Below are positions 2,553 to 50,774 of a DNA stretch of 64,000 nucleotides, piece by piece. Source of the stretch: a virus; IMG/VR virus record IMGVR_UViG_3300044982_000128, positions 12,839 through 76,838 of that record; one strand, written 5' to 3'. Position numbers and translations under genes: made by a program. The number at the start of each line of letters is the position of its first letter. Within the stretch, counting starts at the first letter, position 1. Under the pieces are notes generated by a model. It did no database searches. It was not told the origin of the DNA and saw only the letters and a program-made list of their open reading frames with translations.

Positions 2553-5023
2553 AGCAACTTCTCCTCATCTTCGTAGCCCTGCCCCTGATGGCGCAAAGCC
2601 CGTCAGGCCTGCTGAATACCAATCGCTATCCGGCGCCGGGGTGGACAGCAGCAGGAGCGGGCACCATACCGGCGAGAACGACGATCTGCACATCGCTCAC
2701 GTCCTCGGCAACGCCTTCTGCGGTGGCCTCTGCCATCACGTCCTGTCCGTCCGGTGAAACCGTTTCTCTGGGAGCAGGGACGTACAACTGGTCAACGTCG
2801 CTCATTATTTCGGCGCAAACCCTCAACGTGACTCTTCGAGGCGCGGGACCAAAGAGCACCATCCTGAAGTTCTCAGGCACCAGCACGAATTGCCTTGGCA
2901 TCGGCCCCACGGCCATCTGTCCCTACAATGGCGACTCCAACGCTCTCGGAGGCACTTCGAACTTCTGCGCATGGACGGCGGGTTACTCGGCCGGAACAAC
3001 GGTCCTGACGGCAGGGACTTGCTCGGCGGGATCTCTATCCAATCTTCATGTCGGTTCTCTGCTGATGCTGAGCCAGAACGACGATTCGACCGACACCGGA
3101 AACGCTCTGTTCAACGGAACGACAACCTACTCGCAACAAGGAGATGGAGGAAACGTCATTCCGGGTCAGTCCCAGACTCAGCTTGTGAGCGTAACTAATA
3201 TCTCGGGAACAAGCATTACCATCTCTCCCGCGATCTATGCCCCGCAATGGTCCTCGGGCAAGAGTCCGCAAATGTCCTTCTCCTCTTCCCTGCCCTTGAA
3301 TGGATTTGGGCTGGAGAACCTGACCGTCGATACGTCTTCCGTTCCTTCCTCCAGCCAGAACGCGGCCATGATTCAGTTTGTCTGGGCTACGAATTCCTGG
3401 GTCAAGAACGTCTCGATGATCAACTCGACTTCGGGAGCGTTTCACAAGCATGTCTGGGTTGCCGACTCCTCGCACATCACAGTCAGGGATTCCTACATGT
3501 ATGGGGCCGATCCATCTTCGGAGGGTTATGGAGTGGATTTCTGGGAGTCCGCCGATAACCTCGCCGAGAACAATATCTGCCAGCACATGCCGACCTGCGA
3601 AATCATGGAGGGGGGAGCGGGAAACGTCTTTGGGTACAACTATGCCGTCGATAACTACTACAACAACGGCGATCCCCAGTGGCAGCAGTGCGATCAGTTC
3701 CATCACAACGCGGGAGACTATTACAATCTCTGGGAAGGCAACATCGGCATCTGCCACACCGAAGATTCGATTCACGGCACAGCTTTTGCCAATACGGTCT
3801 TCCGCAACGCTCTGAGCGGCTTCGATCCCTCGACTTCCACCACCAAGACGCAGAACAACCTGACGTTCAACACGATGGGTTACGCGCGGTATGCAAACTA
3901 CGTGGATAACGTCCTCGGATACGGCGGTCATGCCACGAGCTATCAGTACAACATGGCCTCGACAACGGACTGCGGGATCGGCAATTCCGGCATGGTGTTT
4001 CTGTGGGGCGATACAGGGCAGATCGGGTCTGAGTATTCCTCAACCTGCTATGGCGGAACCCTGAGTCCTCCCGGCCCGGTTCCCAACGACATCGTAAGCA
4101 ATGCGGGACCGGCCTTCTCTTCGATGGTCTGCGGCAACTGGGATGCTGTCACGGCCGGGATACATACCTGCGCAACAGCTTCGAGCGCATCGACGTATCC
4201 AGGTCTTTCGAGTCCTTCAACCTCATACGCCAGCTATCCCTCGTTCTATCGCTCCGGCACGCCGGCATGGTGGAACTTCCCTTCCGGCCTGCTTGCGCCC
4301 TATCCGGGCATCGGGTCCGAAGTGACTGGAGGAAATATCTCCGGAACCAGCGGAACGGCTTATCTGAATCCCGCAGCGAACAATTATCTCAATAACCTTG
4401 GGGGCCTGACGAACGGGTCTACGGGCTCCCTGCAATCGAGCTTCGATGGCAGCGTGTATTACTCAGGCGCCGGAACGGTCAATCTCACGGTGGCGACTGC
4501 CGGCAGCGGGACCGGAACCATCACAGGCTCGAACTGCGCCAACGGCAACTATGCCAGCGCTACCTCCGTCACCTGTACAGCGACGGCCACGGGCGGTTCA
4601 ACTTTATCGTCGGTTGCGGGAACCGGCAGCGCCTCTGGCTGCACGTCTTCCCCCTGCACCTTCAGCCTGACCACGCCAAGCACGTATACCGCGACGTTCA
4701 CGGGCGGCACGGCAACCTGCGGCAACCCTTACCAGAATGGTCCGAACTACTCAGGCAGCTACGCAGTCCCGCCGACCATTCTTCCTTTGTCTGTCGGGTT
4801 CACTTCGCCAACCACCGGATGCGCGATGCACGCGACGTTCGATGGATCGGCACCGACCTGCTCCAGTGCTTCCTATTCCGGGTCGAGTTCGCTTTCGAGT
4901 TCGACCGTGATTCGCGTCATTGCCTGCCAGACGGCGTACACCAGTTCTTCGATCATCGGCGGGACATGGACGTTTACCGGCCTGGCACCGCCGCCCATCA
5001 GTATCATCGTGTTAGGAGATTGA
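2549..5023 (+). CDS. Secreted beta-helix protein with C-terminal InlB-B-repeat-like and chitobiase/Fn3-associated-like domains
   Basis: ATGA overlap with the upstream stop; MKQLLLIFVALPLMAQ signal peptide; VTLRGAGPKSTIL and NLAENNI...GNVFGYNY beta-helix rungs; TVATAGSGTGTI repeat and TFDGSAPTCSS...VIRVIA C-terminal domain. Confidence 0.65.
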   Translation: MKQLLLIFVALPLMAQSPSGLLNTNRYPAPGWTAAGAGTIPARTTICTSLTSSATPSAVASAITSCPSGETVSLGAGTYNWSTSLIISAQTLNVTLRGAGPKSTILKFSGTSTNCLGIGPTAICPYNGDSNALGGTSNFCAWTAGYSAGTTVLTAGTCSAGSLSNLHVGSLLMLSQNDDSTDTGNALFNGTTTYSQQGDGGNVIPGQSQTQLVSVTNISGTSITISPAIYAPQWSSGKSPQMSFSSSLPLNGFGLENLTVDTSSVPSSSQNAAMIQFVWATNSWVKNVSMINSTSGAFHKHVWVADSSHITVRDSYMYGADPSSEGYGVDFWESADNLAENNICQHMPTCEIMEGGAGNVFGYNYAVDNYYNNGDPQWQQCDQFHHNAGDYYNLWEGNIGICHTEDSIHGTAFANTVFRNALSGFDPSTSTTKTQNNLTFNTMGYARYANYVDNVLGYGGHATSYQYNMASTTDCGIGNSGMVFLWGDTGQIGSEYSSTCYGGTLSPPGPVPNDIVSNAGPAFSSMVCGNWDAVTAGIHTCATASSASTYPGLSSPSTSYASYPSFYRSGTPAWWNFPSGLLAPYPGIGSEVTGGNISGTSGTAYLNPAANNYLNNLGGLTNGSTGSLQSSFDGSVYYSGAGTVNLTVATAGSGTGTITGSNCANGNYASATSVTCTATATGGSTLSSVAGTGSASGCTSSPCTFSLTTPSTYTATFTGGTATCGNPYQNGPNYSGSYAVPPTILPLSVGFTSPTTGCAMHATFDGSAPTCSSASYSGSSSLSSSTVIRVIACQTAYTSSSIIGGTWTFTGLAPPPISIIVLGD

Positions 5024-31423: not shown

Positions 31424-32625
31424 CTACGCGACTTGCTCTCGATTCAGTTCCAAGCGCTGCAGTTCGACCGCGTGAAAGTACAGTGTCTGAAACTTGCCAG
31501 TGACCGATTGCGAGTCGAAGGAATGGCCCTCGTACGCGCGTGCGACGTCTGCTAGGTAAAAGCATTTGACCGTCTTGTTGCCATTCGTCCGGCTATCGAA
31601 TGTTTCCATGATGACCGCATCACGCATGCGCGGAGAGAACGCCAGTTGCCAGACCCATGAGTCGCCCTCGTGATAGACGGATCCGACTCGGGTCAACTCT
31701 CCCCACTTGCCGGGCCCGCGTGCGATTGCAGTCAGAATGAAATGGTAGGCGAGCCGCTCACGTTCCGCTTGATTTTTGACGTCGACTACAGCTTGGTGTG
31801 CCGCAGAAAGCTTTCGCATAATATCCTCCGCTCTCCGACTTTCTCATCCTAGGCTTGAGACTAGGCAACGGTGCGTTACGGCCGTACAGCCAATTCAGGG
31901 ATTGAATAGCGGCGAATAGTTCCGCGCGCGTCAATCGGCCGTGTTCCGGCGAGAGACCGTTAGCTACATGGTTCATCGGATTCCGCGCGTTTTCCAGCTC
32001 CGCCCACTTGCGCGCGGTCGCTCGAGACGGGGTAATCTCGGAGCTGGTGTTTATGCCCCATTGCGTTACGCCTTGATAGCTTCCCTTGCGAACTACCTTT
32101 GAGAGTGTCATAGCAGACTCCGAATGAAATTACATGCGTCTTGACCGTATTTGCGTACGATCGCCTCTGCTGTGCTTTCGTTTTCGTTTGGTTTGATGAA
32201 TTCATCAAACTTGATTACGTCGAGTTTTAGCAAGCCTTCCCAGTAGTCTTCAAGTTTTACACCGAATACGCTGCGGAAACGTTCGGCGTCTTCAGTGCGG
32301 GGTGGAGAGGATTTGATCATGCGCTCGGTTAAGAATCGTTGTGCGATTGGTAGACGTTCGGCTGCTGTGCGGGGTAGTTTGTAAGTCATGACATCACCGT
32401 CTCAGCAGCACATTTCACGGCATCGATCAGACTTGGGCGCGGTTTGCTCAGGTCAACGTGAGAGAAGGACCCATCTAATCCGCCCTTCCATTCTGTAGGC
32501 TCACTGATTACCTTGAACCAATTACGTCCTGCTTTCGGGTTCCATACTTTGCGAACTACCGCCTTTGGGTACTTCGCTCTTACGATACTTATAGCTTCGG
32601 AATGAGTCATCGGCTCACCTCGCAT
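31424..32625 (-). other. Run of four small early hypothetical genes (32386-32625, 32108-32389, 31758-32111, 31424-31819)
   Basis: Overlapping/coupled ORFs downstream of the promoter at 32631-32659. Confidence 0.5.
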
Positions 32626-32659: not shown

Positions 32660-33012
32660 TAGGCCCTTACAATCTTTTTTGACTCGCCTTGTCTATCTGG
32701 CGTACACCCATAGCGAACGTGAGCCAGATCGGGCAATCGCGTCCAACTAAAGCGGGATTCCTTCACCTTGACACGGATGGGGGAGTTCCTAAGAATCTAG
32801 ATGGACAATCGGACGCGCACCAGCTCGCCGGCGCCAGTGTCGACGTCCGAATACCCCCTATGGAGTCCCCACTCTGGAAAGTCGAGCCCCCTCTCGCCGG
32901 CCGGATACGGGGCTCTCTTCTCCTTCTAAGAGGGCATACAAAATATTCAAAATTTTCTAGGTTGCAAACAAACCAAGTTGTGTTACGGTGGTTCTCGGAA
33001 AGGAAAACAACA

Positions 33013-33573
33013 ATGAGGATCACTATCACTGAAGCCTTGCAGGAAATCAAGACTCTGGTCGCCCGCATCCAGAAAAAGCGGGAGTCGGTCAAACCATATC
33101 TATTGAGAGATAGCCGTATTAAAGATCCTTTCGATAAGGACGGTGGCGTGGAAAAGTTCATTCGTGAGGAGAGGCAGTCTATCGGCGATCTGGAGGCCCG
33201 GATCATTACTATTCGGACTCAGATTCAAACATCAAATCTCGCCTCGGCTTTAGCTATTGGGGAAACGACTCGCTCGGTTGCTGAGTGGCTCACCTGGCGC
33301 CGGGAAATCTCCAAAGGTCAGAAGGAGTTTCTGCAGGTGATCTGGCAGTCTATCCAGGCCACCCGGCAGCAGGTTCAGCAGAAGGGAGGCCGGGTGGTGG
33401 CAAACGTGGCCGTGTCCACATCTGTCGCTTACACCCAGGACACTCCTCCGGAGGTCTTAGTGGGAGTTGACGAACAGGGTTTACTCAAGGAGATCGAGGC
33501 GATGGAAGAGACTCTTGGCGTGCTTGACGGTCGTTTGAGTCTCTTCAACGCAACTACCACAATCGAAATTTAA
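33013..33573 (+). CDS. DIP1984/DUF6847-like coiled-coil protein (186 aa)
   Basis: AAGGA RBS; N-terminal ITEAL.EIK.L..RI, internal SVAEWL and C-terminal LD..LS..NATT.IE match my recollection of this family; not database-verified. Confidence 0.6.
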   Translation: MRITITEALQEIKTLVARIQKKRESVKPYLLRDSRIKDPFDKDGGVEKFIREERQSIGDLEARIITIRTQIQTSNLASALAIGETTRSVAEWLTWRREISKGQKEFLQVIWQSIQATRQQVQQKGGRVVANVAVSTSVAYTQDTPPEVLVGVDEQGLLKEIEAMEETLGVLDGRLSLFNATTTIEI

Positions 33574-33579
33574 TCGGTA

Positions 33580-33878
33580 TTCCGCTTTCGGTAGCGAAAT
33601 GGGATAACAATGAGGATTTGTCAAACTAGCTCAATTGGTAGAGCGGTCGATTTTCAATCGACAGGTAACAGGTTCGATTCCTGTGCTTGACTGTCTCGCT
33701 AGAGACTTTGATGAAGAAGCTGAAAGTTAAATTCTGAAAGCTGCTTTGCTCAAGTCTGAACACTGAAAGAGAACAAGATGCTCAAAACCCTTCGTAAACC
33801 CGGCGGCGCTGGAGACAGAGCCGATGTCCTTCCTCAAAGGGGCATTCTCAGGGTGAAGGCAGCAACTTGGAAGCGGAA
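33580..33878 (+). ncRNA. Putative ~300-nt structured RNA with embedded tRNA and heptamer array
   Basis: Closing helix TTCCGCTTTCGG (33580-91) with TTGGAAGCGGAA (33867-78); internal hairpins including a GAGA tetraloop; no credible ORF. Confidence 0.7.
33620..33692 (+). tRNA. tRNA(-like) cloverleaf, anticodon TTC (Glu) on a Lys-like body, no encoded CCA
   Basis: GTCAAAC/GCTTGAC acceptor (one mismatch), GCTC/GAGC D-stem, GTCGA-TTTTCAA-TCGAC anticodon arm, ACAGG-TTCGATT-CCTGT T-arm. Confidence 0.85.
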
Positions 33879-34450
33879 ATGATTGAATCGGAAGGAAGGC
33901 TGTTCTCGCGTGGAAACCAAAACTAAAAAATGGAAGTTCGCAGGCAGCCTGCCTCCGGTTCTCATCATGAGCACCGGTCACTATCCGCTGGCCGGCGGGG
34001 CCGAACCGGGATTCGACATCTCAAAAATGCAGCTGGACGATCGCATTCTGATGAAGCAGGTTTTCTACACTACGCCAAAGCGGATTCACGGCTTGCTCCA
34101 TTATGAAAGCCCGACCCAACTCTTTTTTGTCGGCTACGATTGTGTCTTGTGCGGCGAGGTTTTCCTGGTGCCGGATTCTGTCAACAACATACGATCTTTA
34201 ACAGATGCGATGGAGCACGGATGCACGGCGTCGCCCGCCGACAGCATTGCCTACTACAAGCACACGGAGCCCAAGCCGTGACCCTCAAGATCTTCCACAA
34301 ACTCGTCTGCCTCATAAAAGGCCACTCGAAGACCCAAGAGCCCATGGTCTTCTTCCGTTCCTGGGATTCCCTTCACGAGATCGGTTCTCTCCACTGCAGG
34401 CGCTGCGGTGCGATGCTTGGTGAGTACCGAAGGAACATATCGGAGCCAAT

Positions 34451-35895: not shown

Positions 35896-36340
35896 TTCTC
35901 CCTGCAGCGGCGCAAGTCTGACGCATGGACACCGTCGCTGCAAACGGTTCTCGGACCTAAACCGAGTGGTGGAGGGACGGTCACCACGATGCCCCCAAGT
36001 TAAGCATGTCAACGCTGTAGGGAAGTGATTTCGGACGCGGGTTCGATTCCCGCCATGTCCACCAACAAGCCCTTGCTGCGCGGGGCGGCTATTGATACGT
36101 CAATCCGTGATGCAGAGTTCAAGGGCTTGTTTGTGGGCATGCCAAGGTTTCGACGGAATCAGCGAACTCCAGTTTCATGCCGGGATTGATGCTCACCGTA
36201 ACGAGAATCAAACTGCAACTGCGGAACCTTTCGCATTGCCGATGGCTGCCTAAGAAACAACCATCCGAGGTTTGGCCGCGTTCCTTGTCAAAGAATACGC
36301 GGTAAAGGAAAGGGCTCCAGCTTCGGCTGGGGCCTTTTTG
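35896..36340 (+). ncRNA. ssrA: Circularly permuted (two-piece) tmRNA
   Basis: Acceptor piece ends T-arm GCGGG-TTCGATT-CCCGC + CATGTCC-A-CCA (36064); intervening hairpin 36065-36134; coding piece starts GGGCATG (36135), giving G3.U70; tag ATAEPFALPMAA* at 36215-36253; pseudoknots on both pieces. The 5' boundary is approximate. Confidence 0.92.
36311..36340 (+). terminator. Rho-independent terminator ending the tmRNA transcript
   Basis: GGCTCCAGC-TTCG-GCTGGGGCC followed by TTTTT. Confidence 0.85.
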
Positions 36341-36369
36341 TTGACAATACATTCCAATCGTGACATGAT
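36341..36369 (+). promoter_or_regulatory. Sigma70 promoter, probably leaderless transcript
   Basis: TTGACA-N17-CATGAT with TG extension; ATG at 36376. Confidence 0.65.
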
Positions 36370-42904: not shown

Positions 42905-43408
42905 TTTCAATCTTTTTCAAAGAGTCGGCGATTTCTTTGAAATGCGCAAGACCTACAGACAACAAGCTCTCAAGGCCCTCCGCAAACGTGAAGGTCTTCC
43001 GTCCCCTGTCGATCAAGATGGCGTCCCACTCGAAACTCGTTTCGACGATCAGGGCAACGCGCACTATTACAACGCATCCGGCGAGAAGCAGGAGCATGTC
43101 CTCTTCGCTGGTGCAGGCAAGGACGGCAAGCCCGGATCGTTCGCTGTCGGCACACGCAAGCAGGAGCCGCGCGAGCTGGCCGATGCATCCTGGCACTCCG
43201 AGTCTGAGTTCCAAATCCTCGACGTCGCAGAAGACGGACGCAAGCTCTCTGATGAGTTGAAAGACCTCGACCGCGACTCTAGTACGTTTGAACGATCCGA
43301 AAAAGTTTCCCACGGTGATGCAGGCGAGCAGGCACCGGAGTTGCATCTGGCGAATACGAGTGACGAAGAGATCGACGAGACGCTGCAGAAGTTTTTGAAG
43401 CGGGGGTT

Positions 43409-43873
43409 GTGATGGGTTGCTTGGAAGACGATATCGATTACGCGTTGCGCGTTCAACGAGGTGAGATCAAGTTGCCTCCGCCACGGCCAAAGATTGTTTG
43501 CCTCTGTGGGTCCACGCGATTTCGCGATCAGTTCATGCAAGCGAACTATCGTGAGACGTTGAAGGGGAATATTGTTTTGAGTGTAGGCTTTTACGTTCAT
43601 GTTGCAGATGAATGCCCGAACTGCGATGCGTCGCAGAGCTTCGCGAAAGAACAAAACGCTGAAGGTCCGCAGGGAAAATGCTGGTGTTGCGGTGCAGATC
43701 TCGGTTGTACTCCGGAGCAGAAGATTGCTTTGGATGAATTGCACAAGCGCAAGATCGATCTTGCCGACGAAGTGTTTGTGCTGAACGTCGGTGGATATAT
43801 TGGTCAGAGCACGCACAGTGAAATTGAGTACGCTATCGCGCATAGAAAACCCGTGCGGTATTTGGAGTCGTAG
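43409..43873 (+). CDS. Nucleoside deoxyribosyltransferase-like Rossmann protein
   Basis: IVCLCGSTRF, HKRKIDLADEVFVLNVGGYIG.ST.SEIEYA. Confidence 0.65.
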   Translation: MMGCLEDDIDYALRVQRGEIKLPPPRPKIVCLCGSTRFRDQFMQANYRETLKGNIVLSVGFYVHVADECPNCDASQSFAKEQNAEGPQGKCWCCGADLGCTPEQKIALDELHKRKIDLADEVFVLNVGGYIGQSTHSEIEYAIAHRKPVRYLES

Positions 43874-50293: not shown

Positions 50294-50774
50294 AGCATAC
50301 CGCATTAAAGAGGCAGTCTGTTATTTTACAGACAAAAACAACAAGCGTGCTGTGATGCGCGATGTTGTATTGGGAGAAGTCATCACTCCGCGGATCGAGC
50401 ATATTTTCTCCAAAGGTCAGTGCCACGCTCTTGCAGTCGCGTTGCATGAGATTCTTGGGTGGGAAGTGATGGGCGTGTATAGTTTTTGGGGCGACGGTCC
50501 TCGTCACACGTATCATTACGTCATTCAGTGCCCGGATCATCGTGGTGATGCGGACATTCATGGAATCCGTTGTCTCGACCACGGTTTGCGAAAGGCGAAT
50601 GTAGGCGTGATCCTCGGTGGAAGGGTTAGAGGATTTTTGCCTCCAGCAATGAACTTCGCCAGACACTACGCCAAGATTATTGCTCCTGAGATTCAGAAGC
50701 AGTGGGATGCTCTGAAAGCGGGGAAGTCCAAGCCTCGGTGGACGTTGTGTTCGGAAGGATATGACGATAAATAA
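50280..50774 (+). CDS. Hypothetical protein directly upstream of terL
   Basis: GGAGG RBS; G.CHALA.AL...H....D.HG motif (Cys-His-Asp). Confidence 0.55.
   Translation: MTPQRAYRIKEAVCYFTDKNNKRAVMRDVVLGEVITPRIEHIFSKGQCHALAVALHEILGWEVMGVYSFWGDGPRHTYHYVIQCPDHRGDADIHGIRCLDHGLRKANVGVILGGRVRGFLPPAMNFARHYAKIIAPEIQKQWDALKAGKSKPRWTLCSEGYDDK

Follow-up and report, generated by a model that had tools for sequence, protein, structure and literature searches.

A doubly pseudoknotted, expressed phage RNA inherited together with one family of helical proteins

A new large structured RNA with strong covariation is a rare find, and one that comes with an obligate protein partner as yet uncharacterised is rarer; RNA-protein pairs have repeatedly opened up new biology, examples being OLE, the omega RNAs and Ro with its Y RNA. 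The GOLLD and ROOL RNAs of phages and prophages are found near tRNA islands and have no known protein partner, and the linker of GOLLD sometimes carries tRNAs (bioRxiv 10.1101/2024.12.08.627333). The Ro60 (Rsr) protein and YrlA Y RNA are a second point of reference: in that pair, a non-coding RNA is encoded beside the protein gene, is closed by an end stem and contains an internal module that mimics tRNA (PMC4201824). The subject of this report is a locus in a 64,000-nucleotide (nt) stretch of virus DNA, referred to throughout as the window, from IMG/VR record IMGVR_UViG_3300044982_000128. In it, the gene of a 186-residue helical protein, P0001 (33013-33573), is directly followed by a conserved non-coding RNA (about 33580-33878). 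The two constitute one inherited module, and the RNA belongs to a new expressed, doubly pseudoknotted class that is inherited together with one protein family.

The likeness of this RNA to GOLLD and ROOL lies in its being phage-encoded, highly structured, pseudoknotted, abundant and situated at tRNA islands. However, GOLLD and ROOL are 600-800 nt long as opposed to about 300 nt here, and neither their sequences nor their models match; what sets the window RNA apart is its single-stranded tract of phased units and the obligate protein gene next to it. With Ro60 and its Y RNA, the module shares an RNA encoded next to a protein, 5' and 3' ends that pair and a tRNA-like inner module, but it includes no Ro60-like gene and no match to an Rfam Y RNA, and its protein is a 186-residue helical bundle instead. 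Additionally, the tRNA at this locus is a real and exchangeable tRNA gene, whereas the module of Y RNA is a fixed mimic. Species 1 and 2 of phage T4, rnaX of phage T5 and others of their kind are likewise small, stable phage RNAs encoded among tRNA genes.

That the protein gene and the RNA belong together follows from their linkage in both search directions. The loci fetched through P0001 were 23 viral, 80 metagenomic and one from a metagenome-assembled genome (MAG), and alignment of the DNA that follows the homologues brought out a clear element of 250-365 nt. Using nhmmer and hidden Markov models of the 5' and 3' blocks, the 3' domain was found in 100 of 105 protein-bearing loci, which provided 78 unique full elements. 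A second viral scan, seeded with more distant members of the protein family, brought in 80 loci on contigs of 5-241 kb. R1, a covariance model of the 108-nt 3' domain, recognised the RNA in 72 of these 80, on the same strand as the protein (E-values up to 0.01), the others being five with weak matches at the expected place, two that are cut off and one with none. Overall, the RNA adjoins a P0001 homologue in about 170 of 185 protein-fetched loci, and in most loci it starts 3-30 nt past the stop codon of the protein gene. The order is reversed in three lineages, in which the RNA precedes the protein gene but the two are still adjacent. In the opposite direction, a pattern drawn from the RNA only and run over IMG/VR gave 10 loci, seven of them confirmed by R1; every one of the seven has a protein homologue adjacent, and four lie on contigs absent from the first protein-based scan. 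The genes downstream of the RNA are not conserved, with 150 open reading frames (ORFs) falling into 141 clusters, and thus the RNA is tied to the protein gene and not to the gene that follows it. A role as the leader of a conserved downstream gene was considered and ruled out, as the downstream genes are unrelated.

The RNA begins with the P1 5' strand, the GCGAA(R) junction, the P2 5' strand and the pseudoknot 5' strand, followed by a variable insert, the A-rich tract and the sequence CAAAAYCC. Beyond this lie the 5' strands of P3 and P4, the P5 hairpin with its GNRA loop, the P6 hairpin, the loop of which takes the pseudoknot strand, and the P2 3' strand; the 3' strands of P4 and P3, the GGCWGC junction and the P1 3' strand complete the element (Table 1). 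The closing helix, P1, has 12 base pairs (bp), three of them G.U, and begins 6 nt past the P0001 stop. The folding energy of the element as a single sequence is not significant (z = -1.5), and the case for the RNA therefore rests on comparison with its relatives. Among 72 distinct sequences, 90.0% of the cells of P3-P6 are paired, compared with 53.1% in shuffled alignments and 34-43% where the partners were slid; cells changed on both sides number 624 against 201 ± 14 in shuffles, and the covariation score of 0.94 (0.23 in shuffles) was exceeded in 0 of 500 shuffles. P1 is paired in 94.7% of cells, with 96 compensatory cells against 24 ± 5. The pseudoknot, found by an all-against-all G-test with average product correction (APC), is 77.8% paired as compared with 51% when shuffled, and has 156 compensatory cells against 60 ± 8. 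P2 consists of three solid pairs, the middle one being G-C in 32 sequences, A-U in 29, G.U in eight and A.C in four. Because P2 crosses P3 and P4, the core is doubly pseudoknotted. There are thus seven helices with strong covariation, of which two, P2 and the loop-binding helix, are pseudoknotted pairings. On the 3' core domain of the window, R1 scores 102 bits (E-value 1e-21). A further short helix, P7, is possible between NGCN after P2 and UGCN before CAAAA; it was seen by eye in many members, the window lineage not being among them.

Known RNA families do not account for the element. At gathering scores, Rfam 15 contains nothing that matches the window but tRNA and, elsewhere in the window, transfer-messenger RNA (tmRNA), and a search of the element at E-values up to 10 returned nothing relevant. 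Likewise, 20 diverse loci and the loci of phages T5 and AM4, introduced below, matched no Rfam 15 family other than tRNA or tmRNA, and the models of GOLLD, ROOL, RAGATH-27, Y RNA and Polynucleobacter-1 do not match the element. A sequence-only reading of this DNA had put forward a candidate new ribonucleoprotein system. It is supported in part: that the RNA is of a new structured class and strictly linked to the protein gene is borne out by the two-way linkage and by the lack of any Rfam match but tRNA. The comparison that it proposed, of the DNA downstream of homologues, showed a closed-stem RNA with phased repeats to recur there, with 0 of 500 shuffles matching the covariation of P3-P6. The individual features that it described, namely the gene, the closing helix, the tRNA, the GTCTC/GAGAC hairpin, the tract at 33720-33769 and the GNRA hairpin, all lie where it had placed them. 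A 12-nt copy of the P0001 gene start within the RNA (AACAATGAGGAT; 33009-33020 = 33605-33616) was tried as a family feature and rejected, being confined to the window lineage: 10 nt are common to the closest relative, and the longest word shared between gene start and RNA averages 5.5 nt in the family against 5.4 nt in mismatched controls. This copy is simply the pseudoknot 5' strand.

The RNA is also expressed. Public sequencing runs that hold part of the stretch number 24, including 14 metatranscriptomes, and four RNA runs from four studies of soils and wetlands were compared with positions 33013-34300. Each run contributed a single contig to this interval (272, 282, 286 and 212 nt); three contigs extend from 33594 or 33605 to 33875-33877 and one covers 33594-33804, while the flanking genes within the interval are without cover in all four runs. 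The contigs run through the tRNA in unprocessed form, although processing of the tRNA is not thereby excluded. These observations fit an abundant, discrete RNA that is about 285 nt long and retains the tRNA, and contradict the outcome in which only a processed tRNA would accumulate; the earlier expectation of a species beyond tRNA size is in agreement with them. Should 33594 be a true 5' end, mature molecules would be without the P1 5' strand and would begin at the invariant GCGAA.

Table 1. Window coordinates of the protein gene, the parts of the RNA and the promoter candidate
Feature	Position	Strand	Basis or remark
Sigma-70-like promoter candidate for the rightward operon, TTGACA-17-AAGAAT	32768..32796	+	Consensus scan; weak evidence
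Gene of the helical partner protein P0001, 186 residues	33013..33573	+	ORF and translation; ATG 33013, TAA 33571-33573
Whole conserved non-coding RNA, precursor form, P1 5' to P1 3' strand	33580..33878	+	Alignments A2 and A3; nhmmer and covariance model
P1 5' strand (33580-33591) plus 2 nt	33580..33593	+	Pairs with 33867-33878
Near-invariant junction GCGAA(R)	33594..33600	+	G, C and G invariant; A and A nearly so (A2)
P2 5' strand (GGGA; GRGA in family)	33601..33604	+	Pairs with 33846-33849; three-pair core, crosses P3/P4
Pseudoknot 5' strand (AAUGAGGA)	33609..33616	+	Pairs with P6 loop 33831-33836; G-test with APC
Embedded tRNA-Glu(UUC), no encoded CCA, A.C acceptor-stem mismatch	33620..33692	+	ARAGORN; Rfam RF00005
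GUCUC-GCUA-GAGAC hairpin, part of the variable insert	33693..33706	+	Lineage-specific; not conserved in A2
A-rich tract, ~73 nt, ~10 units of 7-8 nt (YUNAAAG), U-rich unit mid-way	33715..33787	+	AAG autocorrelation
3' core, 108 nt: P3, P4, P5, P6 and 3' strands of P2 and P1	33771..33878	+	A3, pair counts, covariance model R1
P3	33789-93 with 33855-59	+	A3 pair counts
P4	33798-801 with 33851-54	+	A3 pair counts
P5 hairpin, GAGA (GNRA) tetraloop at 33812-33815	33803..33824	+	9/9 pairs changed on both sides; loop G and A invariant
P6 hairpin; loop 33830-33839 contains pseudoknot 3' strand UCCUCA	33825..33844	+	5/5 pairs changed on both sides
P2 3' strand (UCUC; UCYC in family)	33846..33849	+	Pairs with 33601-33604
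Conserved junction GGCWGC plus 3 nt	33858..33866	+	G, C and G invariant, C nearly (A3)
P1 3' strand (UUGGAAGCGGAA; GGAGG in most relatives)	33867..33878	+	Pairs with 33580-33591

The tract between the insert and CAAAAYCC recalls described protein-binding RNAs. TRAP on the trp leader and HutP on hut RNA both recognise short purine triplets at a fixed spacing in unstructured RNA, the triplets recurring every 5-6 nt in TRAP targets and every 7 nt in those of HutP. The tract shares this arrangement. It measures 72-78 nt in most of 74 elements, is 40% A and has no covarying pairs; its consensus comprises about four YUNAAAG units, one U-rich unit and four or five further units. Successive AAG triplets are spaced at 7 nt in 94 cases and at 8 nt in 43, with harmonics at 14 and 21 nt, compared with about five cases per lag in shuffled tracts. 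The 7-nt phasing that had been noticed in the single sequence is thus a conserved and length-constrained property of the family. A fixed length together with a fixed phase implies a partner of defined geometry, for which the co-inherited protein would be the obvious candidate. The parallel with TRAP and HutP has its differences: the proteins are unrelated, the spacing here is 7-8 nt over about ten units, only a dimer is predicted, and the tract is the closed loop of a large folded RNA, whereas the targets of TRAP and HutP are messenger RNA (mRNA) leaders.

P0001 has more than 170 close metagenomic homologues, and a profile search of 1.84 billion representatives extends its family to 1227 clusters at 50% identity with E-values up to 1e-3, or 390 at E-values up to 1e-30. 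A scan of a genome collection added one MAG contig, and near-identity and protein searches of cultured phages gave Lactococcus phages at 30% identity as the sole matches. No Pfam match was found, with none to DUF6847-like families at E-values up to 10, nor any NCBIfam match at E-values up to 1, the DIP1984 family included, and there is no match among PDB sequences even by profile. The protein does match the phrog_1491 profile (3.6e-16), with residues 2-143 on profile positions 4-147 of 211 and the C-terminal quarter of P0001 left uncovered, and by this sequence criterion it is a divergent member of phrog_1491, the family that also contains T5.085 of phage T5. The family is annotated as "tail fiber protein". 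No evidence behind this label was found; P0001 is modelled as a helical bundle, and its gene, 17 kb away from the terminase, is the first of an operon of small genes that looks early. The tail-fibre label of T5.085 is probably wrong.

The AlphaFold model of P0001 (pLDDT 87) consists of four long helices, with a small sheet to which the termini and the connecting loops contribute. The only full-length solved structure that matches it is PDB 3kdq, which we take to be DIP1984 itself, a protein of Corynebacterium diphtheriae. VIA-align superposes 153 of 153 residues on 3kdq_C with a root-mean-square deviation of 6.3 and a Z of 11.1 (runner-up 7.7), in a range where values below about 13 can be generic for helical bundles, and Foldseek gives a probability of 0.99 and an E-value of 0.064. 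The overall folds are alike over the whole chain, but the identity is 13% and, as noted above, the sequence families do not match. The description of P0001 as DIP1984-like is accordingly right for the fold alone. A likeness to the tRNA-binding arm of seryl-tRNA synthetase (Z about 7, residues 1-78) was discarded, since generic helical hairpins are no evidence. Two copies of P0001 are predicted to form a symmetric homodimer along helices 2 and 3, with an ipSAE of 0.75 against 0.00 for the best control and a pLDDT of 88; these scores are model confidence and not measurement, the ipSAE mark being reached by 20 of 30 known homodimers and one of 23 monomers, and 93% or more of the contacts recur between runs. 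The oligomerisation that had been supposed for the protein is therefore matched by predicted self-association; the ring that went with it is not indicated, in modelling that covered two copies only.

Related modules probably occur in cultured phages. Full-length members of phrog_1491 include T5.085 (3.3e-82) and a homologue in Lactococcus phage AM4 (1.8e-68). After T5.085 there is a gap, at about 43133-43503 on the minus strand of NC_005859 (L201 1634-2004), that is not annotated as RNA. Within it, a 27-nt inverted repeat of 74% closes 317 nt, and the contents include a CGGTAGaCGAAAG junction, AAAG units in heptads, and CAAACCCTAG paired with CTAGGCTGT. In AM4, 354 nt are enclosed by an 11-bp repeat without mismatches, and a terminator lies beyond it. 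Both closed regions, of 320-380 nt, thus have the junction motifs of the family together with AAAG units, and from these sequence features they are likely homologous to the window RNA. The stable RNA rnaX of T5 is annotated 1.5 kb from T5.085; in the closed region of roughly 370 nt, NC_005859 has no RNA annotated. In AM4, a tmRNA match of 109.6 bits also lies between the annotated tRNA-Arg and tRNA-Pro genes (NC_049856 ~31786-32135; L026 392-741), where the feature table lists no tmRNA. No paper on T5.085, on the function of DIP1984 or on such an RNA was found in the literature, the 10,006 viral candidate RNAs of PMC10690425 lying outside the comparison. The RNA and the protein-RNA pair are considered new, in that neither was found in the RNA catalogue and literature searched.

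The module is best read as a ribonucleoprotein tied to tRNA or translation biology. This reading, of a phage ribonucleoprotein in which the tract serves as the binding track, is drawn from the linkage and has about an even chance of being correct. In such a particle, the RNA would derive by excision from the 3' untranslated region of the mRNA that encodes the protein, and a dimer of the helical protein, or a higher assembly of dimers, would bind it. The likeliest binding site would be the 72-78-nt loop of about ten AAG units spaced at 7-8 nt, in a way that recalls the reading of spaced triplets by TRAP and HutP. The particle would act early in the rightward operon, in a tRNA- or translation-related takeover of the host, and might occupy a niche like that of GOLLD and ROOL.

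Several points weigh against this interpretation. Adjacency alone is weak evidence that a protein binds an RNA. The conserved W/R-rich motif of P0001 (residues 92-98) lies in the predicted dimer interface instead of on a free surface, and the two-fold symmetry of the predicted dimer would not by itself account for about ten repeats. As to expression, contigs cannot fix the ends of an RNA, and because the sequences of close relatives depart from that of the window at 33593 and diverge from it beyond 33878, the contig ends that are shared may be branch points of the assembly graph. As to cultured phages, R1 did not detect the RNA of AM4 or of T5, and the P0001 family profile matches T5.085 weakly, though over its whole length (E-value 0.0014; hhalign E-value 0.0019); the link to T5 and Lactococcus therefore rests on phrog_1491 membership and on architecture recognised by eye. 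Furthermore, by analogy with GOLLD and ROOL, which work without a known protein, a function of the RNA alone is possible.

In that case the RNA would be a machine in itself, for example a multimeric assembly or a sponge for some host factor by which the AAG units are read, and the gene would be linked merely as the source of the transcript. The position of GOLLD and ROOL near tRNA islands would suit this explanation, as would the four RNA runs, in which the RNA is far more abundant than the mRNA of the gene. The explanation is nonetheless unlikely, although it is the rival that survives best, since the linkage, which holds for about 170 of the 185 protein-fetched loci and for all seven found by searching for the RNA first, is maintained despite changes of order and transfer between very different phages. 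A linkage that outlasts both is hard to explain without a shared function.

The variable insert bears on two further explanations. In the window it is occupied by tRNA-Glu(UUC), which scores 64 bits with RF00005 against a gathering score of 29. With ARAGORN, a tRNA was identified at the insert site in 29 elements of the first unique set of 78 and in 13 of another 42, or 42 of 120 (about 35%), and these tRNAs represent at least 15 anticodon types at one fixed site, some with odd anticodon loops. In four more loci, a tRNA follows the RNA by 2-10 nt. The background in the loci is 0.049 tRNA per kb, and the enrichment over it is about 75-fold. A cassette for the expression and processing of tRNAs, in which the element is a scaffold for the expression, folding or maturation of phage tRNAs inside or just after it and these are released by RNase P and RNase Z, would be consistent with the variety of anticodons, the fixed site and the enrichment. 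It is an improbable account all the same. About two-thirds of elements are without an intact tRNA, and many of the tRNAs are odd-looped, decayed, permuted or replaced by a hairpin region of 38 nt, whereas the core, tract and protein are conserved; additionally, the RNA contigs span a tRNA that is unprocessed.

The inserts that lack a tRNA raise the related idea that the element displays a tRNA or anticodon arm as a decoy for, or sensor of, host anticodon nucleases. Where ARAGORN called no tRNA (49 inserts), 23 of the inserts retain hairpins like an anticodon arm or T arm, with a 5-bp stem and 7-nt loop (30 against 0.75 in shuffled sequences), and 15 keep the T-loop motif; others are about 38 nt of plain hairpins. 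Such retained arms, and anticodon loops that are often unusual, might be expected of a decoy. About a fifth to a third of elements have no tRNA-like piece, however, the remnants fit plain decay after repeated acquisition, and no defence or counter-defence gene is linked, all of which makes a decoy or sensor quite improbable. It follows that tRNAs have entered the insert site time and again and degenerated there, with the core, tract and protein enduring throughout. Because the tRNA is facultative and intact in only about 35% of elements, being decayed or absent in the rest, its carriage or protection is not the core function, and the sequence-only reading, which had given the module that purpose, is not upheld here. 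In the ribonucleoprotein favoured above, the tRNA would occupy a peripheral loop tolerant of any insert and would be an exchangeable, dispensable arm or cargo, not the functional core.

Some inserts and their surroundings deserve separate mention. One embedded tRNA (locus L061, 1218-1291) has the anticodon UUA and is called "Stop" by ARAGORN, and the insert of L006 forms an anticodon-arm-like hairpin with a CUA loop; both may be suppressor-type arms. The inserts of L049 (~3276-3390) and L055 (~1107-1245) resemble circularly permuted tRNAs, with a T arm, a looped acceptor-like stem and a D arm, and their connection to the scaffold would run through the counterpart of the anticodon stem. Often, the RNA stands at the start of a tRNA island: tRNA genes or arrays occur 2-50 nt past its 3' strand in L005, L009, L021, L048 and L050, with six in a row in L021.

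The genome itself is complete, being recorded in IMG/VR as a 76,838-bp virus with direct terminal repeats, of which the window spans bases 12,839-76,838, and it has one copy of the RNA element. A leftward replication module (primase, DNA polymerase, exonuclease, helicase and methylase) finishes near 32,600, and a rightward operon runs from 33,013 to the terminase at 50,774, with the gene of P0001 as its first. The promoter candidate of Table 1 is located upstream of that gene, in a divergent intergenic region of about 390 nt. On the far side of the RNA, a 15-codon ORF (33879-33926) begins 1 nt past P1, and the next gene (33910-34281) encodes a small protein with paired cysteine motifs. Small cysteine-rich proteins are encoded 3' of the RNA in several relatives too, and their sequences are unrelated. 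A circularly permuted (two-piece) tmRNA gene lies 2.1 kb downstream of the RNA (36004-36253; 35972-36344 by ARAGORN). It matches Rfam RF04321 with 94 bits against a cut-off of 47, and the tag peptide given by ARAGORN is ATAEPFALPMAA. In another locus, L024, a tmRNA lies 2.2 kb upstream of the module.

Alternatively, the RNA might act in cis within its operon, whether by stabilising or terminating the protein's mRNA at its 3' end or, as a leader, by hiding the ribosome-binding site of the next gene. The P1 3' strand supplies GGAGG, with an ATG 4-13 nt later in about a third of loci; about 40% of loci have a run of U after P1, and the closed region of AM4 precedes a terminator. Yet the downstream genes are unrelated and many have a ribosome-binding site of their own, the RNA stands upstream of the protein gene in three lineages, and a 300-nt double pseudoknot with a phased tract, which moreover accumulates alone, goes far beyond such needs. 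A cis-acting element is therefore a distinctly improbable explanation. Very improbable, in turn, is a self-cleaving or protein-assisted ribozyme that excises itself at UA|GCGAA: three RNA contigs have the first base of the invariant GCGAA as their exact start, and a nested double pseudoknot with conserved junctions makes up the fold, but the strain difference at 33593 can account for the common start of the contigs and no known ribozyme family matches. A type III toxin-antitoxin-like pair, which the sequence-only reading had also suggested and to which a protein gene adjoining a repeat-bearing RNA is the sole resemblance, is extremely improbable. The repeats here are 7-8-nt units within one folded RNA, whereas those of type III pairs are about 36 nt long, stand in tandem and precede an endoribonuclease; the RNA follows the gene in most loci, and the all-helical bundle matches no nuclease family.

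A more far-reaching form of the ribonucleoprotein favoured above can be envisaged, though its likelihood should be put low. In this form, a helical assembly would measure the ten-heptad loop on a knotted scaffold that displays a swappable tRNA or anticodon arm, a programmable machine for sensing, decoying or repairing attacks on tRNAs or ribosomes; otherwise, the module would be a protein-assisted ribozyme that excises itself from the mRNA of its partner. The module as such is widespread: it is present in far more than a hundred uncultured phages, the smallest of about 30 kb and the largest of jumbo size. As the RNA resides among tRNA and tmRNA genes, it bears on the question of why GOLLD and ROOL keep company with tRNAs, and the probable forms in T5 and in dairy Lactococcus phages would make its function directly testable at the bench.

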